Below are positions 1,878 to 27,290 of a stretch of DNA of 64,000 nucleotides, in pieces (position 1 is the first letter of the stretch; each line of letters starts with the position of its first letter). Both the position numbers and the translations under genes were made by a program. The stretch lies in the UHGV virus genome UHGV-1378516, one strand, 5' to 3'. The notes beneath the pieces were generated by a model. The model was not told where the DNA came from. It saw only the letters and a list, made by a program, of their open reading frames with translations, and made no database searches. The stretch comes from a virus.

Positions 1878-1885
1878 TAAATTGG

Positions 1886-1958
1886 GGTGACCTACGGGAT
1901 TTGAACCCGTATAGACCATGTTCACAGCATGGGTCATTACCATTTATGATAAGGCCAC
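1886..1958 (-). tRNA. tRNA-His (anticodon GTG)
   Basis: Acceptor GTGGCCT/AGGTCAC, T-arm ACGGGTTCAAATCCCGT, anticodon stem CCATG/CATGG loop CTGTGAA. Confidence 0.7.
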
Positions 1959-1992
1959 ATTTAAGGACTCTCGTAAGAATCCTTAGAAGTGG

Positions 1993-2065
1993 CAGCGGCA
2001 TAAGGATTTGAACCTTAATAGGACAGCTTCAGAGACTGTTGCATTGCCAGTTATGCTATACCGCT
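1993..2065 (-). tRNA. tRNA-Gln (anticodon CTG)
   Basis: Acceptor AGCGGTA/TGCCGCT, T-arm TAAGGTTCAAATCCTTA, anticodon loop CTCTGAA. Confidence 0.6.
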
Positions 2066-2072
2066 AAATTTG

Positions 2073-2142
2073 GTACTCCATATCGGATTCGAACCGATAC
2101 ATAACACAGATTTTAAGTCTGGCCTCTCTGCCAATTGGAGTA
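2073..2142 (-). tRNA. tRNA-like gene, short (about 68-70 nt), anticodon loop CTTAAAA (UAA, nominally Leu); non-canonical D-arm
   Basis: T-arm ATCGGTTCGAATCCGAT and acceptor pairing present; D-arm does not fold canonically. Confidence 0.4.
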
Positions 2143-2154
2143 ATGGAGCATTGG

Positions 2155-2227
2155 CGGGGGATGTTGGAATTGAACCAACTTCTTCGATTTCAAAGACCGA
2201 GGTTTTAACCTTGTAAACTAATCCCCT
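2155..2227 (-). tRNA. tRNA-Gln (anticodon TTG)
   Basis: T-arm GTTGGTTCAATTCCAAC, acceptor AGGGGAT/ATCCCCC (1-72 mismatch), anticodon loop CTTTGAA. Confidence 0.55.
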
Positions 2228-2235
2228 TTAAATCT

Positions 2236-2793
2236 TTACTTTCTTAGTGGATGAATAAAGAATGCCAACATAACTCTTTCCCTTGAGAATGCTCTTTCTT
2301 CTGGGACAACGCTTTTAAGTTTCCACCCAACATAAATTCTCCAGTAAAATTGTTTACCAAAGATTTTGATTGATGGCACAAAAGCGAATAACCCCCAAGC
2401 ATTACTGTTCCACATTAGGAGATAACCAGTTTGATTATCTTCAGGGTTAGAACTTACGTTGATATTACCTTTCCACTTAGTAACGTCTTTTACATCTCTT
2501 CCTAACACATGGTAAGAGAAGTTATAAGCTTTGTTTCTCCAGAGCCATCCAACTCTCTGCATGTAGACACCAAGCTTACCAATCTTTCTAATCTTAGCCC
2601 ATCGTTTGATATGACCTGCATCACCATCAATTGGGTTGTCATAAGTCTCCATCCATCTGAACCCGAAAGGCAAGTGTCCTTTCTTCTCACTGTAGAATGG
2701 AACTACAAAAGGTGCTAAGATAACTGCTAAGATTGCTGCAAATGGCTCTAACAAAGCTAAGAAAATCCATGAAGCATACTTTAAGTATCTCAT
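2236..2793 (-). CDS. hypothetical membrane protein embedded in tRNA cluster
   Basis: ORF track 185 aa; hydrophobic N-terminus IFLALLEPFAAILAVILAPFVVPF. Confidence 0.5.
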   Translation of the reverse strand: MRYLKYASWIFLALLEPFAAILAVILAPFVVPFYSEKKGHLPFGFRWMETYDNPIDGDAGHIKRWAKIRKIGKLGVYMQRVGWLWRNKAYNFSYHVLGRDVKDVTKWKGNINVSSNPEDNQTGYLLMWNSNAWGLFAFVPSIKIFGKQFYWRIYVGWKLKSVVPEERAFSRERVMLAFFIHPLRK

Positions 2794-3032
2794 TGTCTAA
2801 TCCTCGTAAGGAGGTAAATGTTATTATTAGTTTCTAAACCTTCTGGTAAAACTGTCTCAAAAATAACACTCTTCAGATGTCTACCACCAAAACAATCACG
2901 TATAAATCTTTCTACTCTAGCGGGGTCACATAAGTATCCCACTTTTAAGAAAATGTGGTGTTCAACACCAATGACCCTGACAAACTCAATACTCTCACAG
3001 TTTTCATGTTCAACTACTGTTAATGTTTGCAT
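2790..3032 (-). CDS. hypothetical protein (80 aa)
   Basis: ORF track; 4-nt overlap with downstream gene suggests translational coupling. Confidence 0.4.
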   Translation of the reverse strand: MQTLTVVEHENCESIEFVRVIGVEHHIFLKVGYLCDPARVERFIRDCFGGRHLKSVIFETVLPEGLETNNNIYLLTRIRQ

Positions 3033-3052
3033 AGTATCACCTTTTTATCTGG

Positions 3053-3125
3053 CGCAGGATAAGGGATTCGAACCCCTATTAACAGCTTCGTAGACTGTTG
3101 CTCTTTCCATTTGAACTAATCCTGC
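3053..3125 (-). tRNA. tRNA-Arg (anticodon ACG)
   Basis: Perfect acceptor GCAGGAT/ATCCTGC, T-loop TTCGAAT, anticodon loop CTACGAA. Confidence 0.7.
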
Positions 3126-3133
3126 AAAATTGG

Positions 3134-3208
3134 TGTTCCAAGACGGATTCGAACCGTCACTAATACAAGGTTTGAGCTTGCATCCTCTGCCAATTGGGAT
3201 ACTGGAAC
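3134..3208 (-). tRNA. tRNA with anticodon CAA (nominally Leu) but short type-I architecture
   Basis: Acceptor GTTCCAG/TTGGAAC, T-arm GACGGTTCGAATCCGTC, anticodon loop CTCAAAC, discriminator A; no long variable arm. Confidence 0.5.
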
Positions 3209-3212
3209 ATGG

Positions 3213-3284
3213 TACTCACTAAAGGACTTGAACCTTTTTCTTCATCTTGTAAGGGTGATGTTTTACCATATAAACTAAGCGAGT
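3213..3284 (-). tRNA. tRNA-Val (anticodon TAC)
   Basis: Acceptor ACTCGCT/AGTGAGT (one GU), T-arm AAAGGTTCAAGTCCTTT, anticodon loop CTTACAA. Confidence 0.55.
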
Positions 3285-3288
3285 ATGA

Positions 3289-3376
3289 AAGAGGTCTGGA
3301 GTTGTGCCGCTAACTCAACTCCGTGGAATTTGTTACGGTCTTCAGTTGACTCAAAGCGGTCTTTCACTTGACCTCT
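3289..3376 (-). ncRNA. tRNA-sized structured RNA candidate without canonical T-loop
   Basis: 7-bp terminal pairing AGAGGTC/GACCTCT spaced 88 nt apart, internal 7-bp hairpin GGAGTTG...CAACTCC; no TTCRANT T-loop. Confidence 0.25.
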
Positions 3377-3383
3377 GAATTGG

Positions 3384-3456
3384 TGCTCCCACAAGGACTC
3401 GAACCCTGATAAGTTGCTTACAAGGCAACCGTAATAACCAATTATACGATAGGAGC
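3384..3456 (-). tRNA. tRNA-Thr (anticodon TGT)
   Basis: Acceptor GCTCCTA/TGGGAGC, T-arm CAGGGTTCGAGTCCTTG, anticodon stem GTTGC/GCAAC loop CTTGTAA. Confidence 0.65.
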
Positions 3457-3466
3457 ATTAATTTGG

Positions 3467-3538
3467 AGCATCCAGAGGGAATCGAACCCTCAACCTCAGT
3501 TTGGAAGACTGTAATTTTCCCGTTTAAACTATGGATGC
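3467..3538 (-). tRNA. tRNA-Gly (anticodon TCC)
   Basis: Perfect acceptor GCATCCA/TGGATGC, T-arm GAGGGTTCGATTCCCTC, anticodon loop CTTCCAA. Confidence 0.65.
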
Positions 3539-3547
3539 ACTAATTGG

Positions 3548-3620
3548 TGGAGTCACCGAGAATTGAACTCGGTTCCCAAGTTTGCAAAACTCGAATTTTA
3601 ACCATATAAACTATGACCCC
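3548..3620 (-). tRNA. tRNA-Ala (anticodon TGC)
   Basis: Acceptor GGGGTCA/TGACTCC with G3-U70, T-arm CCGAGTTCAATTCTCGG, anticodon loop TTTGCAA. Confidence 0.7.
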
Positions 3621-3629
3621 AATGTCTGG

Positions 3630-3702
3630 TACAGGTGGAGGGAATTGAACCCATCGTCTTACTGATTAAGAGTCAGCCGCATAACCATTTTGCTACACCT
3701 GC
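3630..3702 (-). tRNA. tRNA-Lys (anticodon CTT)
   Basis: Acceptor GCAGGTG/CACCTGT, T-loop TTCAATT, anticodon stem GCTGA/TCAGT loop CTCTTAA. Confidence 0.55.
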
Positions 3703-3712
3703 ATTAATTTGG

Positions 3713-3788
3713 TAGGAGACAAGGGATTCGAACCCTCAAGCATCTCGTTCTAAGCGAGATAGGTCTACCAAGTTGCCGTCAATCTCCC
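3713..3788 (-). tRNA. tRNA with anticodon TAG (nominally Leu), type-I length
   Basis: Acceptor GGGAGAT/GTCTCCT (two GU), T-arm GAGGGTTCGAATCCCTT, perfectly palindromic anticodon arm ATCTCG-CTTAGAA-CGAGAT. Confidence 0.5.
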
Positions 3789-4044
3789 ATTAAATCTTTT
3801 TAGAGAACTTCTAAGAACCTGAGCAACAAGGTTCCACAACAAGCGACTAATAACCTTAGAAGCCCTCTAAAAAGACCTAAATAGGTCTTTGCATAGTCTT
3901 GTTTAATCCGGTGACTAGAACCTTTGGAGAGCTTGATATTATCTCTTCTCCGTGACACCTACTAGGTGCTTTGACAGTGTACGACAATACACGAGGGATA
4001 AACCGACAATGCGAACAAGCATGGACGGAGTAAATCTTATTAGG

Positions 4045-4132
4045 CGGTAAGTAAAGGAGTCGAACCCTCACCGTATCTCTACAGTGGCAACAGTTTTCAA
4101 GACTGTTTGGCTGCCATTAGCCGCTACCTACC
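4045..4132 (-). tRNA. tRNA-Ser (anticodon TGA), type II
   Basis: Acceptor GGTAGGT/ACTTACC, T-loop TTCGACT, anticodon stem ACAGT/ACTGT loop CTTGAAA, long variable arm. Confidence 0.6.
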
Positions 4133-4148
4133 CCTAATAAGACTTTGG

Positions 4149-4228
4149 CATGGGACGGAGGAGTTGAACCCCTTTGAAACGGTTTTGGAGGCCGTTGCTC
4201 ATGCCTTAGAGTCTTAACATCGTCCCAT
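4149..4228 (-). tRNA. tRNA-like gene (80 nt), anticodon undetermined (possible 9-nt loop containing CCA)
   Basis: Perfect acceptor ATGGGAC/GTCCCAT and T-arm AGGGGTTCAACTCCTCC; interior does not fold into canonical D/anticodon arms. Confidence 0.4.
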
Positions 4229-4373
4229 ATTATAATTCGAAGCTTACCCTGTTATCTCAACACTGTCAAGCTTCTTCTCAGATTATTTACATGTTCTGGA
4301 AAACATGAGATACAGACCACCTCCCTACAGGAAGACCCGCTAAGGCCGTCTAAGTAATCTGCTAACTATTTGG

Positions 4374-4447
4374 TACACCCTACAGGATTCGAACCTGTAA
4401 CTAACGATTTAGAAGACCGTTGCTCTATCCAATTGAACTAAGGGTGC
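4374..4447 (-). tRNA. tRNA-Arg (anticodon TCT)
   Basis: Acceptor GCACCCT/AGGGTGT, D-arm GTTCAATTGGATAGAGC, T-loop TTCGAAT, anticodon loop CTTCTAA. Confidence 0.65.
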
Positions 4448-4696
4448 ATTATCTTTAAAGACTCTCTTAGAAAGCCCTTAAAGATGCCCACCTTATTAAT
4501 CATACCGTGGGCGAGTACGCCAAATTCTTTGATGAGGGATTGGAAGACCTCACTGGTGTTTAGCCTATCAAGCTACTGCCAGAAAAACATTGTCGTTTGC
4601 ATTTATTTTAAATTTGCAAAATAGACGCTACGCAACGAAAACTAAGGTTACTATAAAGTAGTCACATCTCAATGTCAACAACTTTATTGAAATTGG

Positions 4697-4769
4697 TACT
4701 GGTAGGTGGAATCGAACCACCGATGTTCCCTTATCAGGGGAGTGTTATAACCTTCTTAACTATACCAGC
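4697..4769 (-). tRNA. tRNA-Ile (anticodon GAT)
   Basis: Acceptor GCTGGTA/TACCAGT, T-arm GGTGGTTCGATTCCACC, anticodon loop CTGATAA. Confidence 0.65.
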
Positions 4770-4773
4770 TTGG

Positions 4774-4847
4774 AGGTTCAGATGGGAATCGAACCCACAT
4801 TCATAGGGCTTATGAGACCCTTGCATTACCTTATCTGCGACTGAACC
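4774..4847 (-). tRNA. tRNA-Met (anticodon CAT; initiator-like GGG/CCC in anticodon stem)
   Basis: Perfect acceptor GGTTCAG/CTGAACC, T-loop TTCGATT, anticodon stem AGGGT/GCCCT loop CTCATAA. Confidence 0.6.
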
Positions 4848-4854
4848 ATATTGG

Positions 4855-4927
4855 TAGAAGTGGAGGGATTCGAACCCATCGCCTGTCAGATTAAAAGTCT
4901 GCCGCATCACCATTCTGCTACACTTCC
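4855..4927 (-). tRNA. tRNA-Lys (anticodon TTT)
   Basis: Acceptor GGAAGTG/CACTTCT, T-loop TTCGAAT, anticodon loop CTTTTAA. Confidence 0.6.
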
Positions 4928-5126
4928 ATTAAATTATCTTTGTAGATAAGCTACCCAGACTTGCTTAAGGTCTGTAGCGATGTGCCTTTTGGGTTTAAAT
5001 CTAGAATTTACCCATTCACCCTTTGTGGTCGCATACTCACAGGTAAGCTTAATAACTTATCTACAAAGATAATTACCAGACCGTTGTTTATCATCTTAAG
5101 TGCTACCATTACACCAACTCGACATC

Positions 5127-5172
5127 TGCCGAGTGAAGGAATCGAACCTTCGCCTTTTCTTTACCGGAGAAA
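5127..5172 (-). pseudogene. tRNA remnant: 3' half (T-arm + acceptor 3' strand) plus an anticodon-arm-like hairpin (loop CCGGTAA), no matching 5' acceptor strand
   Basis: T-arm GAAGGTTCGATTCCTTC present; no complementary 5' acceptor strand within 100 nt. Confidence 0.3.
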
Positions 5173-5358
5173 TAGATTGTTTAAGTTTTGCTGTAAACGG
5201 TCTTCTGTAAATTTGTTGAGCCAGACCAAGTTTTAAATTTTCAAAATTAAATTGGCTTGAAATTTCATACGTTCTTGCTGTATTTGGTCTTCTGCTCCTT
5301 TAAAGAATACTCGTAAGAACTCTTTAAGGGAGGGGCTAAATAGCCCTCTCAAAATTGG

Positions 5359-5433
5359 CGGTTACGAAGGGATTTGAACCCTCATCATCTCCCGTGACAG
5401 GGGAGTATTTTAACCAGATTAAACTACATAACC
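5359..5433 (-). tRNA. tRNA-Asp (anticodon GTC)
   Basis: Acceptor GGTTATG/CGTAACC, T-loop TTCAAAT, anticodon stem CTCCC/GGGAG loop CTGTCAC. Confidence 0.65.
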
Positions 5434-5441
5434 TTTATTGG

Positions 5442-5526
5442 TGTGCCGTGTAGGAGTCGAACCTACCGAGTCTCAATGACAAGGGATTTACAGTCCCCAC
5501 CGCTACCATCTACGGGATAACGACAC
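5442..5526 (-). tRNA. tRNA-Tyr (anticodon GTA), type II
   Basis: Acceptor GTGTCGT/ACGGCAC, T-arm GTAGGTTCGACTCCTAC, anticodon loop CTGTAAA, long variable arm. Confidence 0.6.
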
Positions 5527-5598
5527 ATTTAATTTCTATTCAGGCTAAGGACTTGCACCTTACAAATCGGTGAGCAATCGCTTCTCTCCTAAATTTGG

Positions 5599-5672
5599 CG
5601 GTTAGTCAGGGATTCGAACCCTGTGCCATTCGCTTAACAGGCGACCGCACATACCTTATGTGCTTCCTAACC
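5599..5672 (-). tRNA. tRNA-Asn (anticodon GTT)
   Basis: T-arm CAGGGTTCGAATCCCTG, acceptor GGTTAGG/ACTAACC, anticodon loop CTGTTAA. Confidence 0.6.
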
Positions 5673-5759
5673 ATGTTTAGTATTACCAGACCGTATCTTT
5701 CAATTTTTTCCGCTAAAAATTTAATAAATATTGCTGTAAACGGTCTTCTGTAAATTTGG

Positions 5760-5833
5760 AGGCGGGTGCAGGAGTCGAACCTGCCGATACCATGCTAATG
5801 AGACATGTGAGACGCCCTTTCTCTATACCCGCA
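5760..5833 (-). tRNA. tRNA-Met (anticodon CAT), 1-72 mismatch
   Basis: T-arm GCAGGTTCGACTCCTGC, acceptor TGCGGGT/ACCCGCC, anticodon stem CATGT/GCATG loop CTCATTA. Confidence 0.55.
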
Positions 5834-5927
5834 ATTCTTAATGACCAGACCAAATCTCTTCTTTGTCCGATTTACCTTCAGATGAATAAGATTAAGTTTG
5901 CTGTAATTGGTCTTCTGTCAAAACTGG

Positions 5928-6002
5928 CGTTCCAGAAGGGATTTGAACCCTCAAATATCCACTTTGAAAGAGTGGTGACTTTACCATTTTGTCTACTGGA
6001 AC
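5928..6002 (-). tRNA. tRNA-Glu (anticodon TTC)
   Basis: Perfect acceptor GTTCCAG/CTGGAAC, T-loop TTCAAAT, anticodon stem CCACT/AGTGG loop CTTTCAA. Confidence 0.65.
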
Positions 6003-6012
6003 ATTAATTTGG

Positions 6013-6086
6013 TCTCTGTTGGAGGACTTGAACCTCCGGCCTTACCGCCCCAAACGGAACGCTCTACCAAGCTGAGCTAAACAGAG
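6013..6086 (-). tRNA. tRNA-Pro (anticodon TGG)
   Basis: Perfect acceptor CTCTGTT/AACAGAG, canonical D-arm GCTCAGCTTGGTAGAGC, T-arm GGAGGTTCAAGTCCTCC, anticodon loop TTTGGGG. Confidence 0.65.
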
Positions 6087-6251
6087 ATAAACTTTTCAAA
6101 CTCTATGTAACCACTTTAACATTATTTTTTAGTGGTTGTCAAGAACTTTTTTAAAATATTCTTCAGTATCTTAGAAAAGCTCTCATTTCGTTTCTATGTA
6201 GAACATATTAAAGGGTATTAAACACATTGTCAATACCCTTTTTAAAACTTT

Positions 6252-7667
6252 TTACCAGATGTAACGGTCAATCATTACTGCTTTGAGCATTACGCTGATT
6301 GGGTCAAACTTCTCACCACCAAGCAGAGCTTTTAAAGTGGCTGGAGAGAAACCAGATACCATTGCTACACCGTTATCCTTAACGGACACTTCGCAAGTAC
6401 CATTACGGTTTGCTAAGTACCAGAATACCAGTTGTGGCATCTCATATCCAGCTTTTTTGTACTTGCTCTGAATTGCTTCAAAGTTTGTACGACCGTTAGC
6501 TCCATCAACCTGATTGAACTCCATATCAGAGAATATGATAAGCTTACTTGGCATATCTTTCTGAGTCAAGTTGTTTCTCTTACCTATTTCAAGAATGCGG
6601 TCAAAAGCTGCTTGTAAGTTAGTTGAACCATATTCAACATGACGCATTACCTGACGATGACGGTTTCGTAAATCACCACTCAGTTCGATGAAGTGAGGGT
6701 TTGTTGAATAAACCATCAACTCATTCTTAAAGCAACCTGTATTGCGTTCTGCTACATACAAGGCAAGTGATACACCAATATCAAGGGCGGTGATTGAACC
6801 AAGATTCACCCAAGACATTGAGCTTGAAACATCAGTCATACACAAGATGTTTTCACCTTCTGCCATCCAGTTTGGTAGTGCTTTCCACTGCTCATTGGCA
6901 ACATCTGCATTACCATGCTTGATAGACTTAATCACATCGTATGGGTAAACAGCACCAGCATTAATCTTAGCCTCACCCTTTGATAAGGACTCAATGTAAG
7001 CTTTGTAGCGTTCTCCATCTTTACGGTTAAACAGTTTTTGGTAACGTGCAGCAGCAAGTGAAGGAATCTTACTGTAGTCAATCTTACCAAACTCATTAGC
7101 AGAGATTTTTTGCTCAACTGTATCAGATAGTGCAGACAACAGTGTGCGGTACTCTTTCTCACTCAAGTTGGCAAACTTGCAGAAACGTTTTACAAACTGC
7201 TTATGACGTGGTTTGACTCGTGGTAACCACTTAGCTGCCAAACCTGCTGTTGCAGGGTCTAGTAATGCTGCTTCTAAATGTTTGAAGGCATCTGTCTCGA
7301 AACGAGTACCTACGAAGATTTTGAAGTCATCAAAACGGCCAAGTTCTGCAATCTTATCCATAATACGAAGAACCTGCGTAGACTCTAAAACTTTGTCTTC
7401 AATTGCTTGAAGCAAAACAGTTCTGAAGGCTTTACGCTCACCCATACCTTCTCGTACATCTCGCATATGAAGCAAAATACGAACTGCAACATCAACATCC
7501 TCACGCAAAGCTTTGTAGAACAGGTCTGGTAAGATTTCTACGTTGCTACGGCTTGAACCAGCAGCTTTGTAAAAGTCTACAAGAGCAGACATTGATGAAG
7601 TATGGTTTACAGCACCATTTTCAGTTCGACCTGCATGAAGGTGCGCATGTTTAAATAATTCGCTCAT
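6252..7667 (-). CDS. von Willebrand factor A (vWA) domain protein, DUF2828-like
   Basis: 471-aa ORF; MIDAS-type DxSxS motif (MTDVSSSM) followed by a vWA-like C-terminal region. Confidence 0.5.
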   Translation of the reverse strand: MSELFKHAHLHAGRTENGAVNHTSSMSALVDFYKAAGSSRSNVEILPDLFYKALREDVDVAVRILLHMRDVREGMGERKAFRTVLLQAIEDKVLESTQVLRIMDKIAELGRFDDFKIFVGTRFETDAFKHLEAALLDPATAGLAAKWLPRVKPRHKQFVKRFCKFANLSEKEYRTLLSALSDTVEQKISANEFGKIDYSKIPSLAAARYQKLFNRKDGERYKAYIESLSKGEAKINAGAVYPYDVIKSIKHGNADVANEQWKALPNWMAEGENILCMTDVSSSMSWVNLGSITALDIGVSLALYVAERNTGCFKNELMVYSTNPHFIELSGDLRNRHRQVMRHVEYGSTNLQAAFDRILEIGKRNNLTQKDMPSKLIIFSDMEFNQVDGANGRTNFEAIQSKYKKAGYEMPQLVFWYLANRNGTCEVSVKDNGVAMVSGFSPATLKALLGGEKFDPISVMLKAVMIDRYIW

Positions 7668-18461: not shown

Positions 18462-18710
18462 TTAGTTATGACCGTCTTTATCGTAATAAAGAGAAATAAT
18501 TTTATCGCCCCAATAGTGCCAATGTGTACCATCTTTCACCGCTTCTTGAATAGCTGCAATCCAAAAATCCGATTCAGGGTTATAATCCTTGACAATCTGG
18601 CTAACAAGGCTTTTCACCATGTCAAAAGCACTGTCAGTGCCTATAATGTCAAATTTAACGTCCAGAGAGTAGAAGCCAAATTCGTTAACAGTTGCGCGGA
18701 TAGTAGCCAT
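18462..18710 (-). CDS. hypothetical small protein (start trimmed to ATG after conserved RBS cassette)
   Basis: Track ORF read through the intergenic module; ATG at 18708-18710 follows AGGAG-ATTCTAAA spacer. Confidence 0.5.
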   Translation of the reverse strand: MATIRATVNEFGFYSLDVKFDIIGTDSAFDMVKSLVSQIVKDYNPESDFWIAAIQEAVKDGTHWHYWGDKIISLYYDKDGHN

Positions 18711-18780
18711 TTTAGAATCTCCTAGTTTAAGGGTTTTATTTAGTGGGGTGGGGGTTATCTCCTCCCCGTTGATTAGTAAT
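18711..18780 (-). repeat. intergenic cassette, variant A (GC-clamped hairpin + conserved RBS)
   Basis: TAGAATCTCCTAGTTTAAGG...TTTAGTGGGG...CTCCCCGTTGATTAGTAATTTA on plus strand. Confidence 0.6.
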
Positions 18781-19044
18781 TTACTGCATATTGGCGTATG
18801 TTGCAAGCCTTTTTTCGTTGTATTTTGTAAGAATCTCACAAGATAAAACATCGAACTTTGTAACCGCGTTGCCTTTGTCGAGGTCAAAAAAGCCAAACGC
18901 TTTACCATCTTTGAATCCGACAACTTCGTAAGACTCTTTGATGATTTCATCATTGAACAAATCGCTTTCGATACGGTGGAATAATGCTACATCTTCTTTG
19001 TCGGTTGCAATTTGTAAAAGTGTGGTTAATTCTACGTTTTCCAT
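18781..19044 (-). CDS. hypothetical small acidic protein (87 aa)
   Basis: ORF track; preceded by cassette copy. Confidence 0.5.
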   Translation of the reverse strand: MENVELTTLLQIATDKEDVALFHRIESDLFNDEIIKESYEVVGFKDGKAFGFFDLDKGNAVTKFDVLSCEILTKYNEKRLATYANMQ

Positions 19045-19110
19045 CTTGATAACTCCAGTTTAGGACTTTATTTAGTGGGGAAGGTCATTCCCTCCCCGTT
19101 GATTGACAAT
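19045..19110 (-). repeat. intergenic cassette, variant A
   Basis: GGACTTTATTTAGTGGGGAAGGTCATTCCCTCCCCGTTGATTGACAATTTAC. Confidence 0.6.
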
Positions 19111-19641
19111 TTACAGACTTTTGATTGTTTCGTCAATATCTTTTTCAATATCTTTTAAAGTTTTTTCTAAGTTCTTGATATTGAAAGATAAACCTTCACC
19201 GAGAGTCTTAGAGTAACCGCTAGGACGTAAATCATAAAGGCTAATTTGTTCTACATTAGAGAGGCTGACCATTTCACCGCTTACATCATAAGCTATTGAT
19301 ACAGTATTTTCAGGGGCTTTATAGAACTTGTTTAGTGACTTGATAGAACGTTCATAAGCCATTTTATAACCGTTTAAAAGGTTTTTAACATGGTTGTAAA
19401 CGTTTTTACACTCATCCAAGTAAATCCCTAAGAATAGCGGTAATAATTCTGCTACAGCTTGCATAAAGTGAGAGACTACAACGGTTGCAGCATTACGACG
19501 ATGAACGTAATAAGCTCCGTTTTCTGATTTAGTGATGGTTGCAAAGTGTACCCCATTGCAGCGAAATTCGTAGGTATCTTTGACAGGCTTTGACATTACA
19601 GCACTTGAGCGGATGTAATTGATGGCTTTGAACTTGTTCAT
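19111..19641 (-). CDS. hypothetical protein (176 aa; start trimmed)
   Basis: ATG at 19639-19641 directly after cassette RBS. Confidence 0.5.
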   Translation of the reverse strand: MNKFKAINYIRSSAVMSKPVKDTYEFRCNGVHFATITKSENGAYYVHRRNAATVVVSHFMQAVAELLPLFLGIYLDECKNVYNHVKNLLNGYKMAYERSIKSLNKFYKAPENTVSIAYDVSGEMVSLSNVEQISLYDLRPSGYSKTLGEGLSFNIKNLEKTLKDIEKDIDETIKSL

Positions 19642-19725
19642 TTTAGAGTCTCCTAGTTTAAGGATTTTGTTTAGTGGGAAGGTCATTCCCTCCCCGTTGA
19701 TTAGTAATTTACTTGCTTTGATAGC
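19642..19725 (-). repeat. intergenic cassette, variant A
   Basis: TTTAGAGTCTCCTAGTTTAAGGATTTTGTTTAGTGGGAAGGTCATTCCCTCCCCGTTGATTAGTAATTTAC. Confidence 0.6.
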
Positions 19726-19862
19726 TGATTGCAAGCAATTTTTTAAGCTTATCTATAAAGAATCTTTTAAGTGAATCCTTTTAGATAAACCCCCTCGAAC
19801 AAAGTTACCAATGTCAAGGGGTATTGTCAACACTTTTTTAAAAGTTTTTTGTAAGTTATTGA

Positions 19863-20204
19863 TTAACTGATGAATATTTTTTCAGGTTTTACATAGCTGA
19901 TACGCTGACTTTTTAGCAGGTCATCCCAGATTAACGCGGCGATATGGGCATAACCGGATTCACGTAAAAGTTTCATTGTTTTACTTCTCGTTTCAAAACG
20001 GCTTGCGTAGTACTCACTATTTAAAACCGTTTTATTCCCTTCGTTATCTACATGGATAACCTGCATCACTTGAAAGGGGCTTGTGTCCTCGCCTTTATTC
20101 CACTGTTCAAAGTATTTTAGGCACTGCATAGGTGACATCTTATCACTAACCTGAGTTGACCAAGATGAACCCTCTTTATCGGTAATTACGGTTACATAAG
20201 CCAT
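19863..20204 (-). CDS. hypothetical protein (113 aa)
   Basis: ORF track; ATG follows cassette. Confidence 0.5.
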   Translation of the reverse strand: MAYVTVITDKEGSSWSTQVSDKMSPMQCLKYFEQWNKGEDTSPFQVMQVIHVDNEGNKTVLNSEYYASRFETRSKTMKLLRESGYAHIAALIWDDLLKSQRISYVKPEKIFIS

Positions 20205-20285
20205 TTTTAGAATCTCCTAGTTTAAGGACTTTATTTAGTGGGGAAGGTCATTCCCTCCCCGTTGATGTGTAATTTAATCTATCTA
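20205..20285 (-). repeat. intergenic cassette, variant A
   Basis: Identical core to 21071-21160 copy including trailing TGTGTAATTTAATCTATCTAAAAAACAGTGTCAACA. Confidence 0.6.
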
Positions 20286-20308
20286 AAAAACAGTGTCAAC
20301 AAAATTTT

Positions 20309-20713
20309 TTAGAGTTCTGCATAAATTGCGTCGCAGATGTCACGAAAGTCATGATTTGCCAAATTACGTTGTAACCAAGTGGCAAAGAAATCAGCGATTG
20401 CAAAATTTGCGTCATACTCGACAGATAGCCACACTTTAACAGCAAATCTAAACATTTTCAAGTCTAACTCTTTATTCATTACCTTAGATTTGCCTAACAT
20501 GTCGGCCATTTCATATTGTGCGCCATCTAGTGTGATACCTGCTGCAACGTCAGCCAATGAACTTTTTACGTTTTCAACGTCTAAGATAACGCTTTGAATC
20601 TTTCCGATAATGTTGTGCAATGTTTCATCAGGCGCTGATGATGTCAGAACATTAATCCGGTTGACGGTCAAACGTGCTTTTAAGATTGATAATTCACGGT
20701 TATTAATGGTCAT
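20309..20713 (-). CDS. hypothetical protein (134 aa)
   Basis: ORF track; ATG 20711-20713 follows cassette. Confidence 0.5.
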   Translation of the reverse strand: MTINNRELSILKARLTVNRINVLTSSAPDETLHNIIGKIQSVILDVENVKSSLADVAAGITLDGAQYEMADMLGKSKVMNKELDLKMFRFAVKVWLSVEYDANFAIADFFATWLQRNLANHDFRDICDAIYAEL

Positions 20714-20797
20714 TTTAGAATCTCCAATTTAGGATTGAGTGGTAAAGCTCTTTATCTGGGGCTATCTTATCAGCTTGATAACCCCCTGTAAAGTACT
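20714..20797 (-). repeat. intergenic cassette, variant B (GGGGCT...CCCC hairpin + palindrome GTAAAGTACTTTAC)
   Basis: TTTAGAATCTCCAATTTAGGATTGAGTGGTAAAGCTCTTTATCTGGGGCT...CCCCCTGTAAAGTACTTTAC. Confidence 0.6.
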
Positions 20798-21070
20798 TTA
20801 CACTAAATGCAGTTTTTTACCTTTTACTATAATGTAACTCGATGCACTATTGCTTTGCACATCCTGATAAATTCTGCGCAAACGGCCTTCGTAGTGTACT
20901 TTCCAACTGGTTGGAATCTTTTTACCGTATCCCGTAGCAGTTTTTTGGAGTCCTGCGACTTGCCAATCTAAGATATGTTGTTCAGCTTGTAAGTCTTCAA
21001 AGTGCATGACACCATCTACATAGTGACGTAGTGTGACATTTAAAGTGCGACCGTTGTTAGTAGTATACAT
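20798..21070 (-). CDS. hypothetical protein (90 aa)
   Basis: ORF track. Confidence 0.5.
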   Translation of the reverse strand: MYTTNNGRTLNVTLRHYVDGVMHFEDLQAEQHILDWQVAGLQKTATGYGKKIPTSWKVHYEGRLRRIYQDVQSNSASSYIIVKGKKLHLV

Positions 21071-21160
21071 TTTAGAATCTCCTAGTTTAAGGATTTTATT
21101 TAGTGGGGAAGGTCATTCCCTCCCCGTTGATGTGTAATTTAATCTATCTAAAAAACAGTG
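21071..21160 (-). repeat. intergenic cassette, variant A
   Basis: Near-identical to 20205-20285 copy. Confidence 0.6.
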
Positions 21161-21493
21161 TCAACAGTTTTGTTTTCGTTTGCTCAATTCTTGAACAATT
21201 ACAGCGTAGTAGTCTTTTAAGTCACTGATATTTAAAGCATTTATTAGTGAATTATAATCATCGATTAACTGAAAATCATCTTTGAAAATGTCGCTAATCT
21301 GATACGTTCTCGCTTTAAATCTGAAGCTCATTTCTAACCGCTTTATTTGCTCATCACTGAGACGCCCTAGAAAGCTTTCTACAAGGTTATTGCTAACCTG
21401 CTGTGTGATTGCCTTATTTGCTAGATTATAGGCTTTATATGCCTTATATAGCGCGAAAATGGCAATGATTGCAGTGATACCAGTCATTAACAT
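21161..21493 (-). CDS. hypothetical membrane protein (N-terminal TM helix)
   Basis: MLMTGITAIIAIFALYKAYKAY hydrophobic start; overlaps upstream gene by 7 nt. Confidence 0.5.
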   Translation of the reverse strand: MLMTGITAIIAIFALYKAYKAYNLANKAITQQVSNNLVESFLGRLSDEQIKRLEMSFRFKARTYQISDIFKDDFQLIDDYNSLINALNISDLKDYYAVIVQELSKRKQNC

Positions 21494-21783
21494 GGTGTTT
21501 CCTCTTTACGTGATACTTTGCCATTTACAGTTATCTCATAGGATTCTAATAAATCGCTTTTAGACTTTACAGGGCTTTTAAAAGTATCATCATAGATATT
21601 GACTTGCAATACAGGTTTTTTATATTCCCTGCAACTATTCCATAAGCAAATCACTACACGACGGCCTTTGATTTTTCCGTGCAACCATTCCATAACATCA
21701 TGCCTATTCCTTGATGTTTCAATGAAATCAATTTTATTAAGTAACTTGCTTAGATTTTCACGGACTTTATTTGATAGTTTCAT
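21487..21783 (-). CDS. hypothetical protein (98 aa)
   Basis: ORF track; ATG follows cassette. Confidence 0.5.
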   Translation of the reverse strand: MKLSNKVRENLSKLLNKIDFIETSRNRHDVMEWLHGKIKGRRVVICLWNSCREYKKPVLQVNIYDDTFKSPVKSKSDLLESYEITVNGKVSRKEETPC

Positions 21784-21868
21784 TTTAGAATCTCCAGTTT
21801 AGGATTTAGTTGTAAAGCTCTTTATCTGGGGCTTAAGATATCAACTTTTAAACCCCCTGTAAAGTACT
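21784..21868 (-). repeat. intergenic cassette, variant B
   Basis: GGTAAAGCTCTTTATCTGGGGCTTAAG...CCCCCTGTAAAGTACTTTAT. Confidence 0.6.
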
Positions 21869-22162
21869 TTATTTGTTAATTTTCAGCTTTGCATAACCTC
21901 TCATTGTACGAATTGGAGATGTTAAGGCTACGCGTCTAATATATGCCTTTTTCGTGTATACATTTGTCTTCCCGATAGTGTTTACACATGTAAAAAGATT
22001 TATTGGTGAATTTTTTAACTTCAACTGTTTATCAGCCTTCACACCCCATCTTACAGCAGATTGTTTTCCGTTGTCAACCACTTTCCCGCCTAACTTTTTC
22101 GCCATGATGCGAGCGTCATCGCGAGTTTTTGCAGTAATTACAACGTTTTTAATAATAGCCAT
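21869..22162 (-). CDS. hypothetical basic protein (start trimmed to MAIIKN)
   Basis: ATG 22160-22162 after TGGAGAACTTAAAA cassette RBS. Confidence 0.5.
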   Translation of the reverse strand: MAIIKNVVITAKTRDDARIMAKKLGGKVVDNGKQSAVRWGVKADKQLKLKNSPINLFTCVNTIGKTNVYTKKAYIRRVALTSPIRTMRGYAKLKINK

Positions 22163-22248
22163 TTTTAAGTTCTCCAATTTAGGATTTAGTGGTAAAGCTC
22201 TTTATCTGGGGCTTACTTTATCGAACTATAAGCCCCCTGTAAAGTACT
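22163..22248 (-). repeat. intergenic cassette, variant B
   Basis: Hairpin GGGGCTTACTTTATCGAACTATAAGCCCC then CTGTAAAGTACTTTAT. Confidence 0.6.
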
Positions 22249-22629
22249 TTATTTAATTTTGAAGATTGTTACATAACCATCACTCCCGATGATTTGTGAT
22301 ACTCCAGCCTTTTCTACTTGATAGCCCATATTTTCAAGATGATAAATAGCATCATCATAACCATATGCGCCACCCTGATAACGTCTCTTATCACATCTTA
22401 TCAGGTTTTTTCCACGTCCAGCAAGTGCATGGAGAATGGTTTTTTCACTTGAAAGAGTGCCATCTAACATGGTTGCCGTGTAATGGTTGATTTTATTCCC
22501 GTTGATATCATACTTGAAATTGAACGAGTGAACAACAATCACATTACCTTTGAAATTTTCATCAAGTGACTTCTCCAGTACGCTACGAAAGTTGTCTTTG
22601 TTGATGAATTTAGGCGCACGATATTTCAT
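22249..22629 (-). CDS. hypothetical protein (126 aa), first gene of the cassette array
   Basis: ORF track. Confidence 0.5.
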   Translation of the reverse strand: MKYRAPKFINKDNFRSVLEKSLDENFKGNVIVVHSFNFKYDINGNKINHYTATMLDGTLSSEKTILHALAGRGKNLIRCDKRRYQGGAYGYDDAIYHLENMGYQVEKAGVSQIIGSDGYVTIFKIK

Positions 22630-22700
22630 TTTCTGAATCTCCTAGTTTAAGGACTTTATTTAGTGTGGAAGGTCATTCCCTCCCCGTTGATGCAAATACT
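22630..22700 (-). repeat. intergenic cassette, variant A (most upstream copy)
   Basis: TTCTGAATCTCCTAGTTTAAGGACTTTATTTAGTGTGGAAGGTCATTCCCTCCCCGTTGATG. Confidence 0.6.
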
Positions 22701-22897
22701 AGATAACCACGTTCAAAGAGTCAAGAAAAATTTTAAAAATATTTTTGACAAAACTGTAATGAAACGGGCGCACACGACTACCACAAAACAGAACACAAAT
22801 CAAGAATTATTTTTCAATCCGCTACAAATTTTTCCCTTGACTTTTGGGGAGAGGGGGAGTAAGAGGGGGAGAGGGGTTGGTCTGGCTCTCTATAAAA

Positions 22898-23110
22898 ACC
22901 TACCTGCACGATTCTAAAATGATTTTTCTTGCCCGACCTGAGCGGGGTCTGCACGTTTTGAAAATGAAAAATCTCTTTGGAGATTACCTGCACAGTTTGA
23001 AAATGAATTTCCTCTTTGGAGTTCAAAATTTCCTCTACAGATTTCTCTATAGAAATATACCTGCACAATTCTGAAATGAAAAAGCCCTCCTTACCTGAAA
23101 AATTTACCAG
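22898..23110. repeat. four direct repeats CCTGCACNNTTYTRAAATGA(W) with CTCTTTGGAG-like spacers, preceded by a G-rich tract (22850-22890)
   Basis: Copies at about 22898, 22946, 22988, 23061. Confidence 0.5.
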
Positions 23111-23152
23111 ATAAGAAAGGCTTAGTCTATTGTGAATATCCTACGAAGTTTC

Positions 23153-23938
23153 TTAGTTCTTTGCGTCTAAGAAGGTAACTTCTGGCGAAGAGAAAACTGT
23201 CTCAATATCCTCATCAGTTCTTGCATAGATGTAAGTGTCTGCATCACTGCCAAATGTTACTGCAATCCTGTGATTGCTCTTCGACAGGTGGGTAACTAGA
23301 GCGTTACTTAGAGACATCTTTTCAACCGGAGGGTTACTTTGATGTATCTTACCTTTTCTTCGTCTGAAGAGGGTAACTGCATTATCCGTGAACACAACTA
23401 CACCTGCGAAGTATTCTGGTTCACAGTAGTTCTTCCAACCTGAGCGTAACTTGTGGTACATCTCTCCTTCATAGACATATAGATAAACATCTACACTCTT
23501 CATTGCCTGATTGATGATAACTGTGACGGCTTGAGGGTCCAACCCACCGATACCTGCACCAATCATAGGTAAACCAACTTTCTTCAACTGATTAACTTCA
23601 CAGTATCTGTTAAGCTGTTTCAAAGATGACTCTAAAGCACTGTATCGGGCATCTTTACCAGTCTTAAGCTGAGTGTAAAGGTTAGCTATACGGCCTTGTT
23701 TTACACGTGCTACAGAGAAATTACCCAGTAAATTTTCACAGGGTTTGTGTCCTATACCACCTGCATATAGATAAACTTCTGTATCGGTCTCATATGCTTT
23801 TGGGTAAAGTTTAGAAATCTTGTCAGCGATACCTGCACCCATTAAATTCATACAGTTGCAACCGTGACCGATGATGTCAAACTTACCTTTATCAAATGCG
23901 GAAAAGATATCACCGTTGATAATTTTTACAATACCCAT
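23153..23938 (-). CDS. macro-domain-like protein (putative ADP-ribose binding/processing) with C-terminal extension
   Basis: N-terminal GDIF...DIIGHGCNCMNLMGAGIA and later VGLPMIGAGIGGLD resemble the GDIT...VNAAN...GGGV and ...FPAISTGVYGYP elements of macro domains (by-eye alignment to E. coli YmdB). Confidence 0.45.
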   Translation of the reverse strand: MGIVKIINGDIFSAFDKGKFDIIGHGCNCMNLMGAGIADKISKLYPKAYETDTEVYLYAGGIGHKPCENLLGNFSVARVKQGRIANLYTQLKTGKDARYSALESSLKQLNRYCEVNQLKKVGLPMIGAGIGGLDPQAVTVIINQAMKSVDVYLYVYEGEMYHKLRSGWKNYCEPEYFAGVVVFTDNAVTLFRRRKGKIHQSNPPVEKMSLSNALVTHLSKSNHRIAVTFGSDADTYIYARTDEDIETVFSSPEVTFLDAKN

Positions 23939-24663: not shown

Positions 24664-24933
24664 TTACTTCCTCGTTTTAAGAACTGCTAAGATTTCTTTA
24701 GAGTCTGGTAAGAACCATGTGTAGTGATTCTCTTTGATTTCTGGATGAGTGTCAACCTTTATTTTGCACTCTTTACCAACATGCTTAAGCTGTGCTGTGA
24801 CACCCTGCATAAAGATATGACACATCACATTATCCATAATGGTTGGTATAAAGTCAATTCGCATATAAGTTTCTTTTGGTCGCGGTAACAGTAAGTACCC
24901 TTCTACGTAAAAAGTATCTTCATTCTCTGTCAT
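24664..24933 (-). CDS. hypothetical protein (89 aa)
   Basis: ORF track. Confidence 0.45.
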   Translation of the reverse strand: MTENEDTFYVEGYLLLPRPKETYMRIDFIPTIMDNVMCHIFMQGVTAQLKHVGKECKIKVDTHPEIKENHYTWFLPDSKEILAVLKTRK

Positions 24934-25199
24934 TGCTGTTTATTTCCTAATAAAATCATATCAATAAGGTTATTAGCTTTGATTGTGCACTGGTAAAATC
25001 CATCACGATAGAACTCAAGGGCTGCTGCCACATCACTACCAGTATTGCCTTTGATAGTGAATCTTGAATCTTCTTGAGTGTACTTATCACTCTCACTTAC
25101 TTGGGAGTTTTTGAATGTACTGCTCACTTTGTTCGTTGAACACCCTGACATAATTATCAGTAACACAAACATTATAAAACTCTGGCTTAGTTTTTTCAT
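24930..25199 (-). CDS. o-spanin-like outer-membrane lipoprotein (Rz1-like), overlapping the i-spanin gene
   Basis: Signal peptide with lipobox LIIMSGC; gene starts inside the 3' end of 25093-25440 in another frame. Confidence 0.5.
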   Translation of the reverse strand: MKKLSQSFIMFVLLIIMSGCSTNKVSSTFKNSQVSESDKYTQEDSRFTIKGNTGSDVAAALEFYRDGFYQCTIKANNLIDMILLGNKQQ

Positions 25200-25440
25200 A
25201 TGTTAGTACCTCTTTTGTGTGCTTATTCTTAGCAAGCACATCTTTCAAATCATTTTTGTAATTGGTGCTCAGTGTAGCTAATCCTTCCTGATAAGCGTCT
25301 TTAGCTACACTTATCAGCTTCTCATTGTTTAGCTCAGTTTCAGCAACTTGGTAGTCTCTGTAAGAGTATCCTCCCCAGACACCTGCCCCAACTAAGAAAA
25401 CAATTATGAAAGTAGCTTGACAGAACTCTTTAAATGTCAT
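25093..25440 (-). CDS. i-spanin-like protein (Rz-like): N-terminal TM helix + periplasmic domain
   Basis: TM segment FIIVFLVGAGVWGGY followed by charged helical region; overlapped architecture with lipoprotein gene. Confidence 0.55.
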   Translation of the reverse strand: MTFKEFCQATFIIVFLVGAGVWGGYSYRDYQVAETELNNEKLISVAKDAYQEGLATLSTNYKNDLKDVLAKNKHTKEVLTYEKTKPEFYNVCVTDNYVRVFNEQSEQYIQKLPSK

Positions 25441-25972: not shown

Positions 25973-26664
25973 TGTTTAACTAACATGGTTTTAATGTGTG
26001 GAAGGATTCTGTTTACCTTCTGAACATTCTTCTCTGTATCTTCTATAAAGCATACTATATTAAAGTAAGGAAGAATGCAAGACTGAATCATCCTCACTTT
26101 CAAACTTTCTGCACTTATAGAGTTAGTTCCAAAACCACGCATAAAAAGCAAGTAATCATGCTCTATATTGTGCCTTAAAAACATCTCAGTAGGTATTCTC
26201 TGAGATTCACCTCTTGCTGTCAAGAGTCCAACTGCTGCATGATTTGCAATTGCATCAATAATGTTGAAAACATATGTTGGTTTTGCTCTTACAGAATCAA
26301 GAAGATTAGTGTACTGTGAGAATGACCCATCAGTCAATTCCGTTGAGCAATCTTCGTGATTAAAATTTGTAAGAACACCATCAATATCTGCTAAGATGAG
26401 GTTACCTTTTTCTACAAGGTCTTTATTGACTATCACTAAACTATCACGCCTTACACCTATAGCTTGTCCAGTCTCTTTGTCCACAACGTTCACAATGGGT
26501 TCTGATGTGTGGAACTCTTCAAGTGAACATACAACCTCTCTTGCAGTGTCTTCAAAATCTCTGCACTGTTCTGGAGTCCATACACAGGAATCAAGACCTA
26601 ACTCATGAGGATGCAAGTCATAAGCGTGGCACAGGACTTCATCAGACTTTCTTAATTTTTTCAT
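25969..26664 (-). CDS. HAD-superfamily phosphatase-like protein (possible nucleotidase)
   Basis: Motif I-like LILADIDGVLT and downstream GLLTAR / IEDTEKN elements. Confidence 0.4.
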   Translation of the reverse strand: MKKLRKSDEVLCHAYDLHPHELGLDSCVWTPEQCRDFEDTAREVVCSLEEFHTSEPIVNVVDKETGQAIGVRRDSLVIVNKDLVEKGNLILADIDGVLTNFNHEDCSTELTDGSFSQYTNLLDSVRAKPTYVFNIIDAIANHAAVGLLTARGESQRIPTEMFLRHNIEHDYLLFMRGFGTNSISAESLKVRMIQSCILPYFNIVCFIEDTEKNVQKVNRILPHIKTMLVKH

Positions 26665-27190
26665 GATTTACCTTAGAAATGTTTGTTGCAAATTCACATT
26701 GAGCGATAACTTTCATATTGTTATAGACATCTTGAGAGTATTTCTTAGCTTTAGGGATTTTGTACGAATACCCAGCATTATATGATGCTAAAACTTTTTG
26801 TAAAGTCTTCTTTGACTTTGGGTGACCATGTACCTTCGTCCAAAACTCAAGCTCTTTATGTGTTTCTTTTGCGGCATAGTCAAAATCTTTTAAGAGTTTC
26901 TTTTTAGCAACATTAGGACTAATTTTGTTACGCTTTACAACAGTCTTCAAGTGATTCTGGAAGATACCGTAGTCATGGGTCTTTTTATTTTCTACCTTCA
27001 GACCTAACTCTGACTCTTGTAAGGCTATAGCTGCTAGAGTGATACCCCAACCTTTACCCATGTTATTCTCACCATACTGGTAAGCTTTTAACATGTTCAC
27101 TTTTTGGCTAATTGATAGCTCTGGGCAGTCAACTGCATAAGATAAGTGTGCTGTAAACATTAAGCACAAACCTAGAATCAATTTCTTCAT
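26642..27190 (-). CDS. secreted lytic-transglycosylase-like (SLT domain) protein
   Basis: Cleavable-looking signal peptide MKKLILGLCLMFTAHLSYA; AIALQESELG...YGIFQ resembles SLT catalytic region. Confidence 0.45.
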   Translation of the reverse strand: MKKLILGLCLMFTAHLSYAVDCPELSISQKVNMLKAYQYGENNMGKGWGITLAAIALQESELGLKVENKKTHDYGIFQNHLKTVVKRNKISPNVAKKKLLKDFDYAAKETHKELEFWTKVHGHPKSKKTLQKVLASYNAGYSYKIPKAKKYSQDVYNNMKVIAQCEFATNISKVNHEKIKKV

Positions 27191-27246
27191 TGGTTCTCCT
27201 GTTTAGTTTATCGTGACAACAATTATACAGCACTCTGCACAAAATA

Positions 27247-27274
27247 CAAATAAAAAAGGCCGCCGAAGCAGCCT
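27247..27274 (-). terminator. rho-independent terminator
   Basis: Hairpin GGCTGCTTCGGCGGCC followed by TTTTTTATTT on minus strand. Confidence 0.6.
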
Positions 27275-27290
27275 TTTAAGAAATTACTTA

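Follow-up and report, generated by a model that had tools for sequence, protein, structure and literature searches.

A conserved noncoding array of direct repeats, putatively protein-bound, behind the macro-domain gene of Felix-O1-like phages

Arrays of short direct repeats in noncoding DNA are familiar as iterons: the O-protein sites of the lambda origin, the Rep iterons of P1, F, R6K and RK2, and the ori/crr pair of phage P4. The primary origin of phage T7 is intergenic and consists of tandem promoters (phi1.1A and phi1.1B) and an AT-rich stretch. Other short phage sites are asymmetric operators and activator boxes, such as the P1 C1 sites, the T4 MotA boxes and the lambda cII sites. Here we describe an array of four direct repeats in the virus genome UHGV-1378516, of which we analysed a stretch of 64,000 nucleotides (the window). 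The repeats lie in a gap of 523 bp (22630-23152), which proved to be a real noncoding interval, as the original prediction from this DNA had stated. It is flanked on one side by a macro-domain gene (23153-23938, minus strand) and on the other by the first gene of an array of small genes (22249-22629, minus strand). A fifth copy of the motif lies 4.2 kb away, at the promoter of gene 3. By its sequence the window belongs to Felixounavirus and is like Felix O1 and wV8. Over the 2 kb around the gap it shares 92-95% identity with many genomes of this genus (wV8, HY02, UAB_Phi87 and others), and the window carries 26 tRNA genes, typical of Felixounaviruses, which ARAGORN places only at 875-6086.

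The array resembles iterons in its several direct repeats with cores of ~20 bp, all in one orientation and noncoding, in the AT-rich DNA and GC-rich tract that adjoin it, and in an extra site on a promoter kilobases away, comparable to their autoregulatory or auxiliary sites. It differs from them in its irregular spacing of 37-75 bp (against ~22 bp in classical iterons), in having no neighbouring initiator gene, and in belonging to a phage with a T7-like replisome. With the C1, MotA and cII sites it shares a non-palindromic site on the -35/spacer region of a promoter with an excellent -10, that of gene 3, as well as a small number of sites per genome and a lineage-specific motif variant. Unlike them, it touches one promoter only, its clustered copies have no -10 at the distance found there, and the spacing to the -10 differs from that of a MotA box; no homologue of C1, MotA or cII came to light, although none was specifically searched for. 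As at the T7 primary origin, intergenic tandem elements precede an AT-rich stretch, and the phage has a polymerase and a primase-helicase of T7 type as well as short direct terminal repeats; however, Felix-O1-like phages have no phage RNA polymerase, and the repeats are not promoter-class elements that recur elsewhere in the genome.

On the plus strand, CTGCACNNTTYTRAAATGA was matched at 22904, 22949, 22988 and 23061 with no more than one mismatch, and nowhere else in the 64 kb. Shuffled sequences led us to expect 0.13 matches, and none of 100 shuffles reached four. The original prediction had described four direct repeats of roughly 45 bp. The four copies are real, but they are spaced at 45, 39 and 73 bp, and the string quoted for them, TTCTAAAATGA, is exact only in the copy at 22904, the other three reading TTTTGAAAATGA, GTTTGAAAATGA and TTCTGAAATGA. 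Tandem Repeats Finder called no array in the gap. Every gene near the gap is on the minus strand, so the gap is downstream of the macro-domain gene and its terminator and is best read on that strand; the prediction had correctly placed the repeats upstream of the small-gene array. Written in the direction of the genes, the motif is W5-TCATTTy-N7-GTGCAGG: five A or T, TCATTT(T/C), seven mostly A/T positions, GTGCA, then GG or GA. This consensus was drawn from 84 distinct instances at 46 loci. The unit is asymmetric, 20-25 bases long and in the same orientation in all copies, and the stretch before TCATTT is either T5 or A-rich. In order of transcription, and with reference to an alignment of 12 phages from two genera (Felixounavirus and Mooglevirus), the four copies are:

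23059..23084, minus strand: R1, core TCATTTCAGAATTGTGCA at 23062-23079; core columns invariant in the alignment
22986..23011, minus strand: R2, core TCATTTTCAAACTGTGCA at 22989-23006; missing in BPSELC-1, phiWec177 and BPS17L1
22947..22972, minus strand: R3, core TCATTTTCAAAACGTGCA at 22950-22967; mosaic breakpoint in BPS17L1 and VpaE1_ev035
22902..22927, minus strand: R4, core TCATTTTAGAATCGTGCA at 22905-22922

The whole gap is 73-77% identical between the two genera. Within the 12-phage alignment, the fixed motif columns reach a mean identity of 95%, with 32 of 44 invariant, compared with 80% for the N7 columns (8 of 28 invariant), 79% for the spacers between repeats (29 of 109) and 74% for the remainder of the gap (139 of 375). 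The spacers hold indels not divisible by three; the one between R3 and R4, AGGTCnGGCAAGAAAAA, is kept even in Kolesnikvirus. Conservation in related phages, whose absence the original prediction had named beforehand as telling against it, is strong, and the motif occurs in all Ounavirinae lineages examined.

In Felixounavirus, Mooglevirus, Kolesnikvirus and two unclassified lineages from metagenomes, a terminator is followed by three to six copies. In Erwinia Kolesnikviruses, four units of 37-39 bp come right after a homologous macro gene (42% protein identity over 154 aa) and its terminator. An unclassified 88-kb IMG/VR contig without DNA similarity to known phages (L029) carries four to five units downstream of a macro gene of 148 aa. 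In L065, a contig still more distant, the units are six in number and 47 bp long; they stand behind a terminator, and the macro gene is 2 kb away. The motif variant is uniform within a genome: GTGCAGG in Felixounavirus and Mooglevirus, GTGCATAG in the other lineages. When we searched IMG/VR with a two-copy pattern, only Ounavirinae-sized contigs were returned, except for a podovirus-like contig (L021) that is probably a chance match and that we did not accept as a true array. The same pattern in 185,579 bacterial genomes found unrelated tandem repeats only, and there was no array in RB69 tk.4 or in two distant macro-gene contigs. In another distant, phage-sized contig (L066, an 87-kb Logan contig; 4252-6468), a reverse transcriptase (RVT_1) and a large HATPase_c protein come after the macro gene, an unusual pair of genes for such a phage. 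Short repeats phased at 10-11 bp follow the array in L029 (TGTTAA, ~600-760) and L065 (CAGATTGTTA, 6085-6114) and have no clear counterpart in the window; they are candidates for a second protein-binding or bent-DNA region.

The segments flanking the repeats behave as swappable alleles, and the cores are present in every allele. The part comprising the terminator, R1 and R2 has a second, three-repeat allele in BPS17L1, phiWec177, VpaE1_ev035 and the contig L064. These closely related Felixounaviruses (L064, L048 = BPS17L1, L009 = phiWec177, and L047 = VpaE1_ev035) carry two alleles of the macro gene with ~40% protein identity. Because the swapped macro segment ends at R3, the repeats are anchors for mosaic exchange.

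Read along transcription, the region begins with the rIIA-rIIB operon, followed by the genes from gene 3 to the macro-domain gene, an intrinsic terminator, the repeats, a C-rich tract, promoter-like conserved DNA and the first small gene (22629-22249). The products of the operon that starts at gene 3 are a secreted SLT-like protein, a PNK-like phosphatase, two proteins resembling spanins and the macro-domain protein, which has an N-terminal TARG1/DarG-type macrodomain and a beta-rich C-terminal domain. The two spanin-like genes and the SLT-like protein with its signal peptide (24930-25440 and 26642-27190, both minus strand) lie behind rIIB, far from the annotated lysin, and they hint that this operon has late (lysis) functions.

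We built a position weight matrix (PWM) from the motif instances and ran it on the complete 88-kb genome of wV8. Only five sites were found, all on the same strand, with scores of 22-34; the next match scored 14.8 and the shuffle maximum was 12.4. With no further sites in 88 kb, the motif is not a general class of middle or late phage promoter. The site outside the gap has this counterpart in the window:

27222..27277, minus strand: fifth motif copy with its context, TTATTTGTATTTTGTGCA at 27253-27236, PWM score 22.4

This copy directly follows the rIIB terminator (27277-27254) and spans about -38 to -20, the -35/spacer region, of a promoter with a perfect TATAAT at 27227-27222; the ATG of gene 3 is at 27190, 30 nt past it. 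Genomes of Moogle and Mordin type have the same layout, with TTGAAA as the -35. Since the fifth site stands at the start of the operon and the closing terminator abuts R1, the motif brackets the 4.2-kb operon from gene 3 to the macro-domain gene.

The repeats are most likely a cis-acting DNA element, a set of asymmetric sites of ~25 bp (W5-TCATTTy-N7-GTGCA-GG/TA) for one putative, probably phage-encoded protein, which would be either a regulator or a protein that serves a replication origin. As the mechanism we prefer transcriptional control at the operon boundary, a possible reading rather than a probable one. Several features argue for recognition of double-stranded DNA by a single protein: the asymmetry and single orientation of the sites, the tolerance of a T5 or A-run, the lineage-specific variant, the sharp cores against drifting spacers, and the lack of an RNA-structure or coding signal. 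A run that may be T5 or A-rich suits the shape of the DNA minor groove better than a sequence signal in RNA, and one variant per lineage fits co-evolution with a phage-encoded reader. Among the roles first proposed for the region, a multi-site regulator-binding region describes it best: no columns of the gap are better conserved than the cores, there are only five sites per genome, and one of them is on a promoter.

How such a protein would act can be sketched from the positions of the sites. One lies on the promoter that would drive the SLT/PNK/spanin/macro operon; the other four lie just past the terminator that closes it, and the early promoters of the small-gene array follow 130-330 bp downstream. 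A protein bound to the four sites would keep transcription from reading through, whether into the early array or out of it, and it could also cooperate with the promoter site by looping over 4.2 kb, acting as a switch for the operon. We slightly favour this operator role over a replication origin, which is nearly as likely, because one site is on a promoter and the cluster lies where read-through between the spanin operon and the early host-takeover genes would need control.

Several points weigh against an operator. The overlap with a promoter holds for one of the five sites, and the match at that site is partly due to a terminator T-run of a kind common in the genome; a counterpart of that site did not turn up in Kolesnikvirus. 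None of the four clustered sites is followed by a -10 where the gene-3 promoter has one, so they are not themselves activator-dependent promoters. They are not spaced in helical phase, and where phages carry arrays of direct repeats, these tend to be origins or packaging sites more often than operators. No cognate binding protein was identified, the neighbouring macro-domain protein being the only one considered, and the literature we searched held no transcription or binding data for Felix-O1-like phages.

The rest of the gap bears on the alternatives and contains the following features:

23082..23123, minus strand: intrinsic terminator hairpin closing the rII-to-macro-domain operon, a 17-pair stem followed by TTTTCATTTCA
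22846..22876, plus strand: G-rich tract (C-rich on the minus strand), including GGGGGAGTAAGAGGGGGAGAGGGG at 22853-22876
22775..22865, both strands: conserved block with two back-to-back -35 hexamers, its invariant part at 22798-22845
22803-22798 to 22780-22775, minus strand: P2, TTGATT, 17 nt, TAGTCG, facing the small-gene array
22837-22842 to 22860-22865, plus strand: P3, TTGACT, 17 nt, TAAGAG, facing the repeats; its -10 is poor in the window
22696..22750, minus strand: early promoter of the first small gene with an AT-rich upstream element, TTGACT-17-TAGTAT at 22724-22696; the counterpart is annotated as a promoter in phage ASO1A
22630..22695, minus strand: 5' leader and ribosome-binding cassette of the gene at 22249-22629, corresponding to the repeated cassette annotated as DR_6 in wV8, found in 4-9 places per genome

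The U-run of the terminator (23077-23081) leads directly into R1. Several of its stem pairs are G-U in minus-strand RNA and would become C-A if the plus strand were transcribed, which makes it a minus-sense terminator, and the stem pairs are retained in the 12 phages through one- and two-sided changes. The G-rich tract, which the original prediction had also pointed out, is the sole G-quadruplex (G4)-type motif on either strand of the 64 kb (four runs of at least three G, loops of 1-7 nt). Its C-rich allele occurs in the window, wV8, FelixO1, Mooglevirus and Kolesnikvirus; in SP116, VpaE1, BPSELC-1 and phiWec177 the tract is replaced by an unrelated segment with G-runs on the opposite strand. 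P2 and P3 are predicted promoters. None of the 12 phages departs from their -35 hexamers or from the TA of either -10, the arms form a conserved inverted repeat, and in SP116-type phages both -10s are TGTGG-TAGTC(T/G), an extended -10 form. In Kolesnikvirus a plus-strand promoter, TTGACG-18-TATACT, matches at 10 of 12 positions and is directed at the repeats. Together with P3, it makes plus-strand transcription across the array possible. The TTGACA-like element of the original prediction is present at 22745-22750 on the plus strand, but it has no -10 at 17 nt and is an arm of a palindrome around the AT-rich element of the early promoter.

Two irregularities in public records fall in the G-rich tract. 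The GenBank record MK482690 (LMP34) stops inside it, near window position 22867, probably an assembly break at G-rich sequence and not a physical end. VpaE1_ev035 (L047, LR699048) carries a 28-bp insert in the C-rich tract, made up of the palindrome CTGTCTCTAGAGACAG and a duplicated CTCTTACTCCCCCT. The insert resembles a Tn5 mosaic-end footprint and may be a laboratory or assembly artefact; the end of contig L064 is Nextera adaptor sequence.

Beyond the gap lies the hyperplastic array of small genes (18700-22629 in the window, minus strand; 8.1-13.9 kb in wV8). Each of its genes is preceded by a repeated cassette of promoter, leader and ribosome site (DR_1 to DR_9 in wV8; consensus ...CCTAAACTGGAGATTCTAAAATG), and relatives differ in gene content by insertions of 0.2-1.3 kb. 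The setting resembles that of the promoter-early stem-loop (PeSL) cassettes in T4-type hyperplastic regions: the downstream array has repeated promoter/ribosome-site cassettes, and our repeats lie at the edge of the plastic region and coincide with mosaic breakpoints. The four repeats are unlike PeSL cassettes in being another sequence family, present once per genome and without a cassette promoter or ribosome site.

The strongest competitor is that the gap is a replication origin, a possible though not a probable account. The repeats would be iterons, or entry or priming sites for the T7-like replisome (family A polymerase and Toprim-DnaB primase-helicase); transcriptional activation or R-loop priming would come from the adjacent back-to-back promoters and the G-tract, and unwinding would take place in the AT-rich promoter region. 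A unique array of three to six same-strand direct repeats in a conserved noncoding gap, with one outlier site, is consistent with this, and the extra site 4.2 kb away is reminiscent of the ori/crr pair of P4. So are the adjoining tract, the only G4 or G-cluster of the 64 kb, the conserved divergent -35 elements in AT-rich DNA, and the phased 10-11-bp repeats behind the array in two distant lineages. The promoter running into the repeats is strong in Kolesnikvirus and reads TTGACT-17-TAGTCT after TGTGG in SP116-type phages; in the window it is weak (-10 TAAGAG). The AT-rich block with its divergent promoters lies 60-200 bp from the array, and each of the early promoter cassettes has the same AT-rich element. 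Next to the array there is no initiator gene: Pfam and PHROG annotation of the ten upstream genes gave no Rep- or O-like gene, and a T7-type replisome has no need of an iteron-binding initiator. The spacing of 37-75 bp is irregular where classical iterons keep to 22 bp, many Felixounaviruses have an unrelated allele in place of the G-tract, and GC skew tracks gene orientation, with no switch at the gap. Likeness to a DnaA box was also rejected: TGTGCATAG of Kolesnikvirus agrees at 8 of 9 positions with a relaxed box and the Felixounavirus copies at 6 of 9, a comparison made by eye that serves as a lead only.

It is unlikely that the repeats act as RNA. A plus-strand transcript with four ACCUGCAC...AAAUGA modules, started at the conserved plus-strand -35 or at the strong promoter of Kolesnikvirus, could be a sponge, a decoy or an antisense RNA to the 3' end of the macro operon, or a minus-strand read-through RNA could pair with the ribosome-binding sites that the early genes share. 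Promoter-like plus-strand elements point toward the array in at least two lineages, yet no discrete plus-strand RNA end is predicted, because the hairpin read on the plus strand lacks a U-run and contains three C-A mismatches; the minus-strand array, for its part, sits behind a strong terminator. RNAalifold on the 12 phages supports the terminator hairpin only, pairs that involve the repeats never vary and show no covariation, and plus-strand folding is no better than in shuffles (z = +0.37). Alternation of T5 and A5 before TCATTT would, moreover, alter an RNA sequence.

Pairing with ribosome sites brings in a further claim of the original prediction, that each repeat resembles the ribosome-binding site and ATG of the cassettes in opposite orientation. 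For R4, at 22904, this is so. Its 13-nt GATTCTAAAATGA is identical to about five small-gene starts, with a score reached by none of 300 shuffles, and in this phage about five array genes have a start-codon region that pairs with R4 over 13 nt without a mismatch. The resemblance is borderline or absent in the other three copies (score reached by 3, 69 and 9 of 300 shuffles) and is not kept in other genera; R1-R3 and all Mooglevirus, Kolesnikvirus and L029 units have 7-10 nt of complementarity, equal to sense-strand controls. A role as antisense to early-gene ribosome sites thus applies to R4 in this lineage only.

The regular period of 37-39 nt in Kolesnikvirus recalls the repeat RNAs of type III toxin-antitoxin systems, and ToxIN plasmids with identical ToxI repeats are common in hosts of these phages; we confirmed the ToxI sequence in plasmids. 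As with ToxI and the pseudo-ToxI RNAs by which PhiTE mimics it, there are tandem units of 36-39 nt (in Kolesnikvirus and L029) and the words AAATTCA and GTGCAG. Here, however, the shared words are 10 nt apart and not 19 nt as in ToxI, unit lengths differ, half of the units have T5 and not the A-rich cleavage context, and the Felixounavirus spacing is irregular. With two short words matched at the wrong spacing and no covariance-model match, ToxI mimicry was rejected. Rfam, ToxI included, gave no match at E up to 10 and nothing meaningful for other RNA families, and the tRNAs lie elsewhere, so that a known RNA family or tRNA was set aside as well.

More doubtful still is that the array is an evolutionary relic, left by tandem duplication of a module made of a terminator tail and an intercistronic junction, without present function. 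Tails of the form TTTTT(C/T)ATTT follow several terminators of the genome, the junction TTTTTCATTTCAGGAGATTGT before gene 6 resembles R1, the units alternate between two subtypes as though a two-unit module had been duplicated, and copies vary in number from three to six, with R2 lost in some phages. The terminator tails lack the GTGCA half, though, and the same core is found in lineages with no other detectable DNA similarity. Spacers turn over and flanking segments are swapped as alleles, while the cores are the best-conserved columns across genera, which decayed copies would not be. The earlier suggestion of decayed inverted cassette copies that mark past recombination is therefore unsupported, and the likeness to a cassette ribosome site is confined to one copy in this lineage.

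We consider it very unlikely that the repeats are four tandem sigma-70 promoters or encode a small protein, as annotated in GenBank records. R1 does match sigma-70 at 9 of 12 positions (TTTTCA-17-TATATT), but R2-R4 lack a -35, a -10 or both on either strand, the -10-like hexamers vary among phages, and no other promoter of the genome carries the motif. An early-promoter cluster, as the original prediction had also proposed, is thus not found at the repeats; the true early promoter is farther downstream, at 22696-22724. Open reading frames (ORFs) are annotated over the repeats in many records (wV8 gp13, Felix O1 ORF31-34, Moogle gp115, Mordin gp014, 3HA14_1215, BPS17L1 gp012, SP116 ORF19), and the R4-R3-R2 spacings are divisible by three in the window. 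These ORFs lie on differing strands and in differing frames between phages, and indels of 2 and 4 nt and the 37-nt period of Kolesnikvirus break every reading frame, so the gap is not coding.

Equally improbable is a counter-defence or decoy cluster, in which the repeats would be target or binding sites that titrate a host defence protein, possibly together with the adjacent DarG/TARG1-type macrodomain gene. The idea is modelled on the DNA-based aba element against BstA and on pseudo-ToxI RNA. The T-rich strand, TTTTTCATTTTC, has repeated TNTC/TTT motifs of the kind that DarT ADP-ribosylates, and such a decoy would explain why array and macro gene are linked in most lineages. Likenesses to sigma-54, marbox, IHF, Fis, EcoKI-like and MuA sites, judged by eye against consensus sequences and so leads only, failed on spacing or key bases.

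The UAB_Phi87 genome has direct terminal repeats of 608 bp (PMC4837284). The counterpart of the gap in its record is at 21.9-22.4 kb, and we infer that this record begins at the physical end of the genome. A packaging (pac/cos) site was rejected for the array, as the gap would be ~22 kb from the physical ends. The coordinates of the window run parallel to this record, so the window probably starts near the physical end, just upstream of the tRNA cluster.

The array is a new noncoding element, conserved throughout the subfamily and beyond it, present essentially once per genome and of a familiar general kind (iteron- or operator-like), with a putative role in one of these two capacities. It is the most conserved noncoding feature of its gap, which existing records either leave unmarked or wrongly annotate as small ORFs. 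The genome papers and annotations of Felix O1 and wV8 list other direct repeats, not these, and our literature searches returned no description of the element, an origin, a transcription map or a noncoding RNA for Felix-O1-like phages. A Felix O1-type genome paper states that temporal control is not known (PMC3185647).

Felix O1 is a classic phage for Salmonella typing and biocontrol, and its relatives are widely used as therapy candidates. If the array is an origin, it could be put to use in engineering and in the building of phagemids. Should it be an array of operators, it would point to a missing regulator and to a boundary that insulates the hyperplastic early-gene region. On either reading, the five sites would serve as direct bait for finding the protein that binds them.

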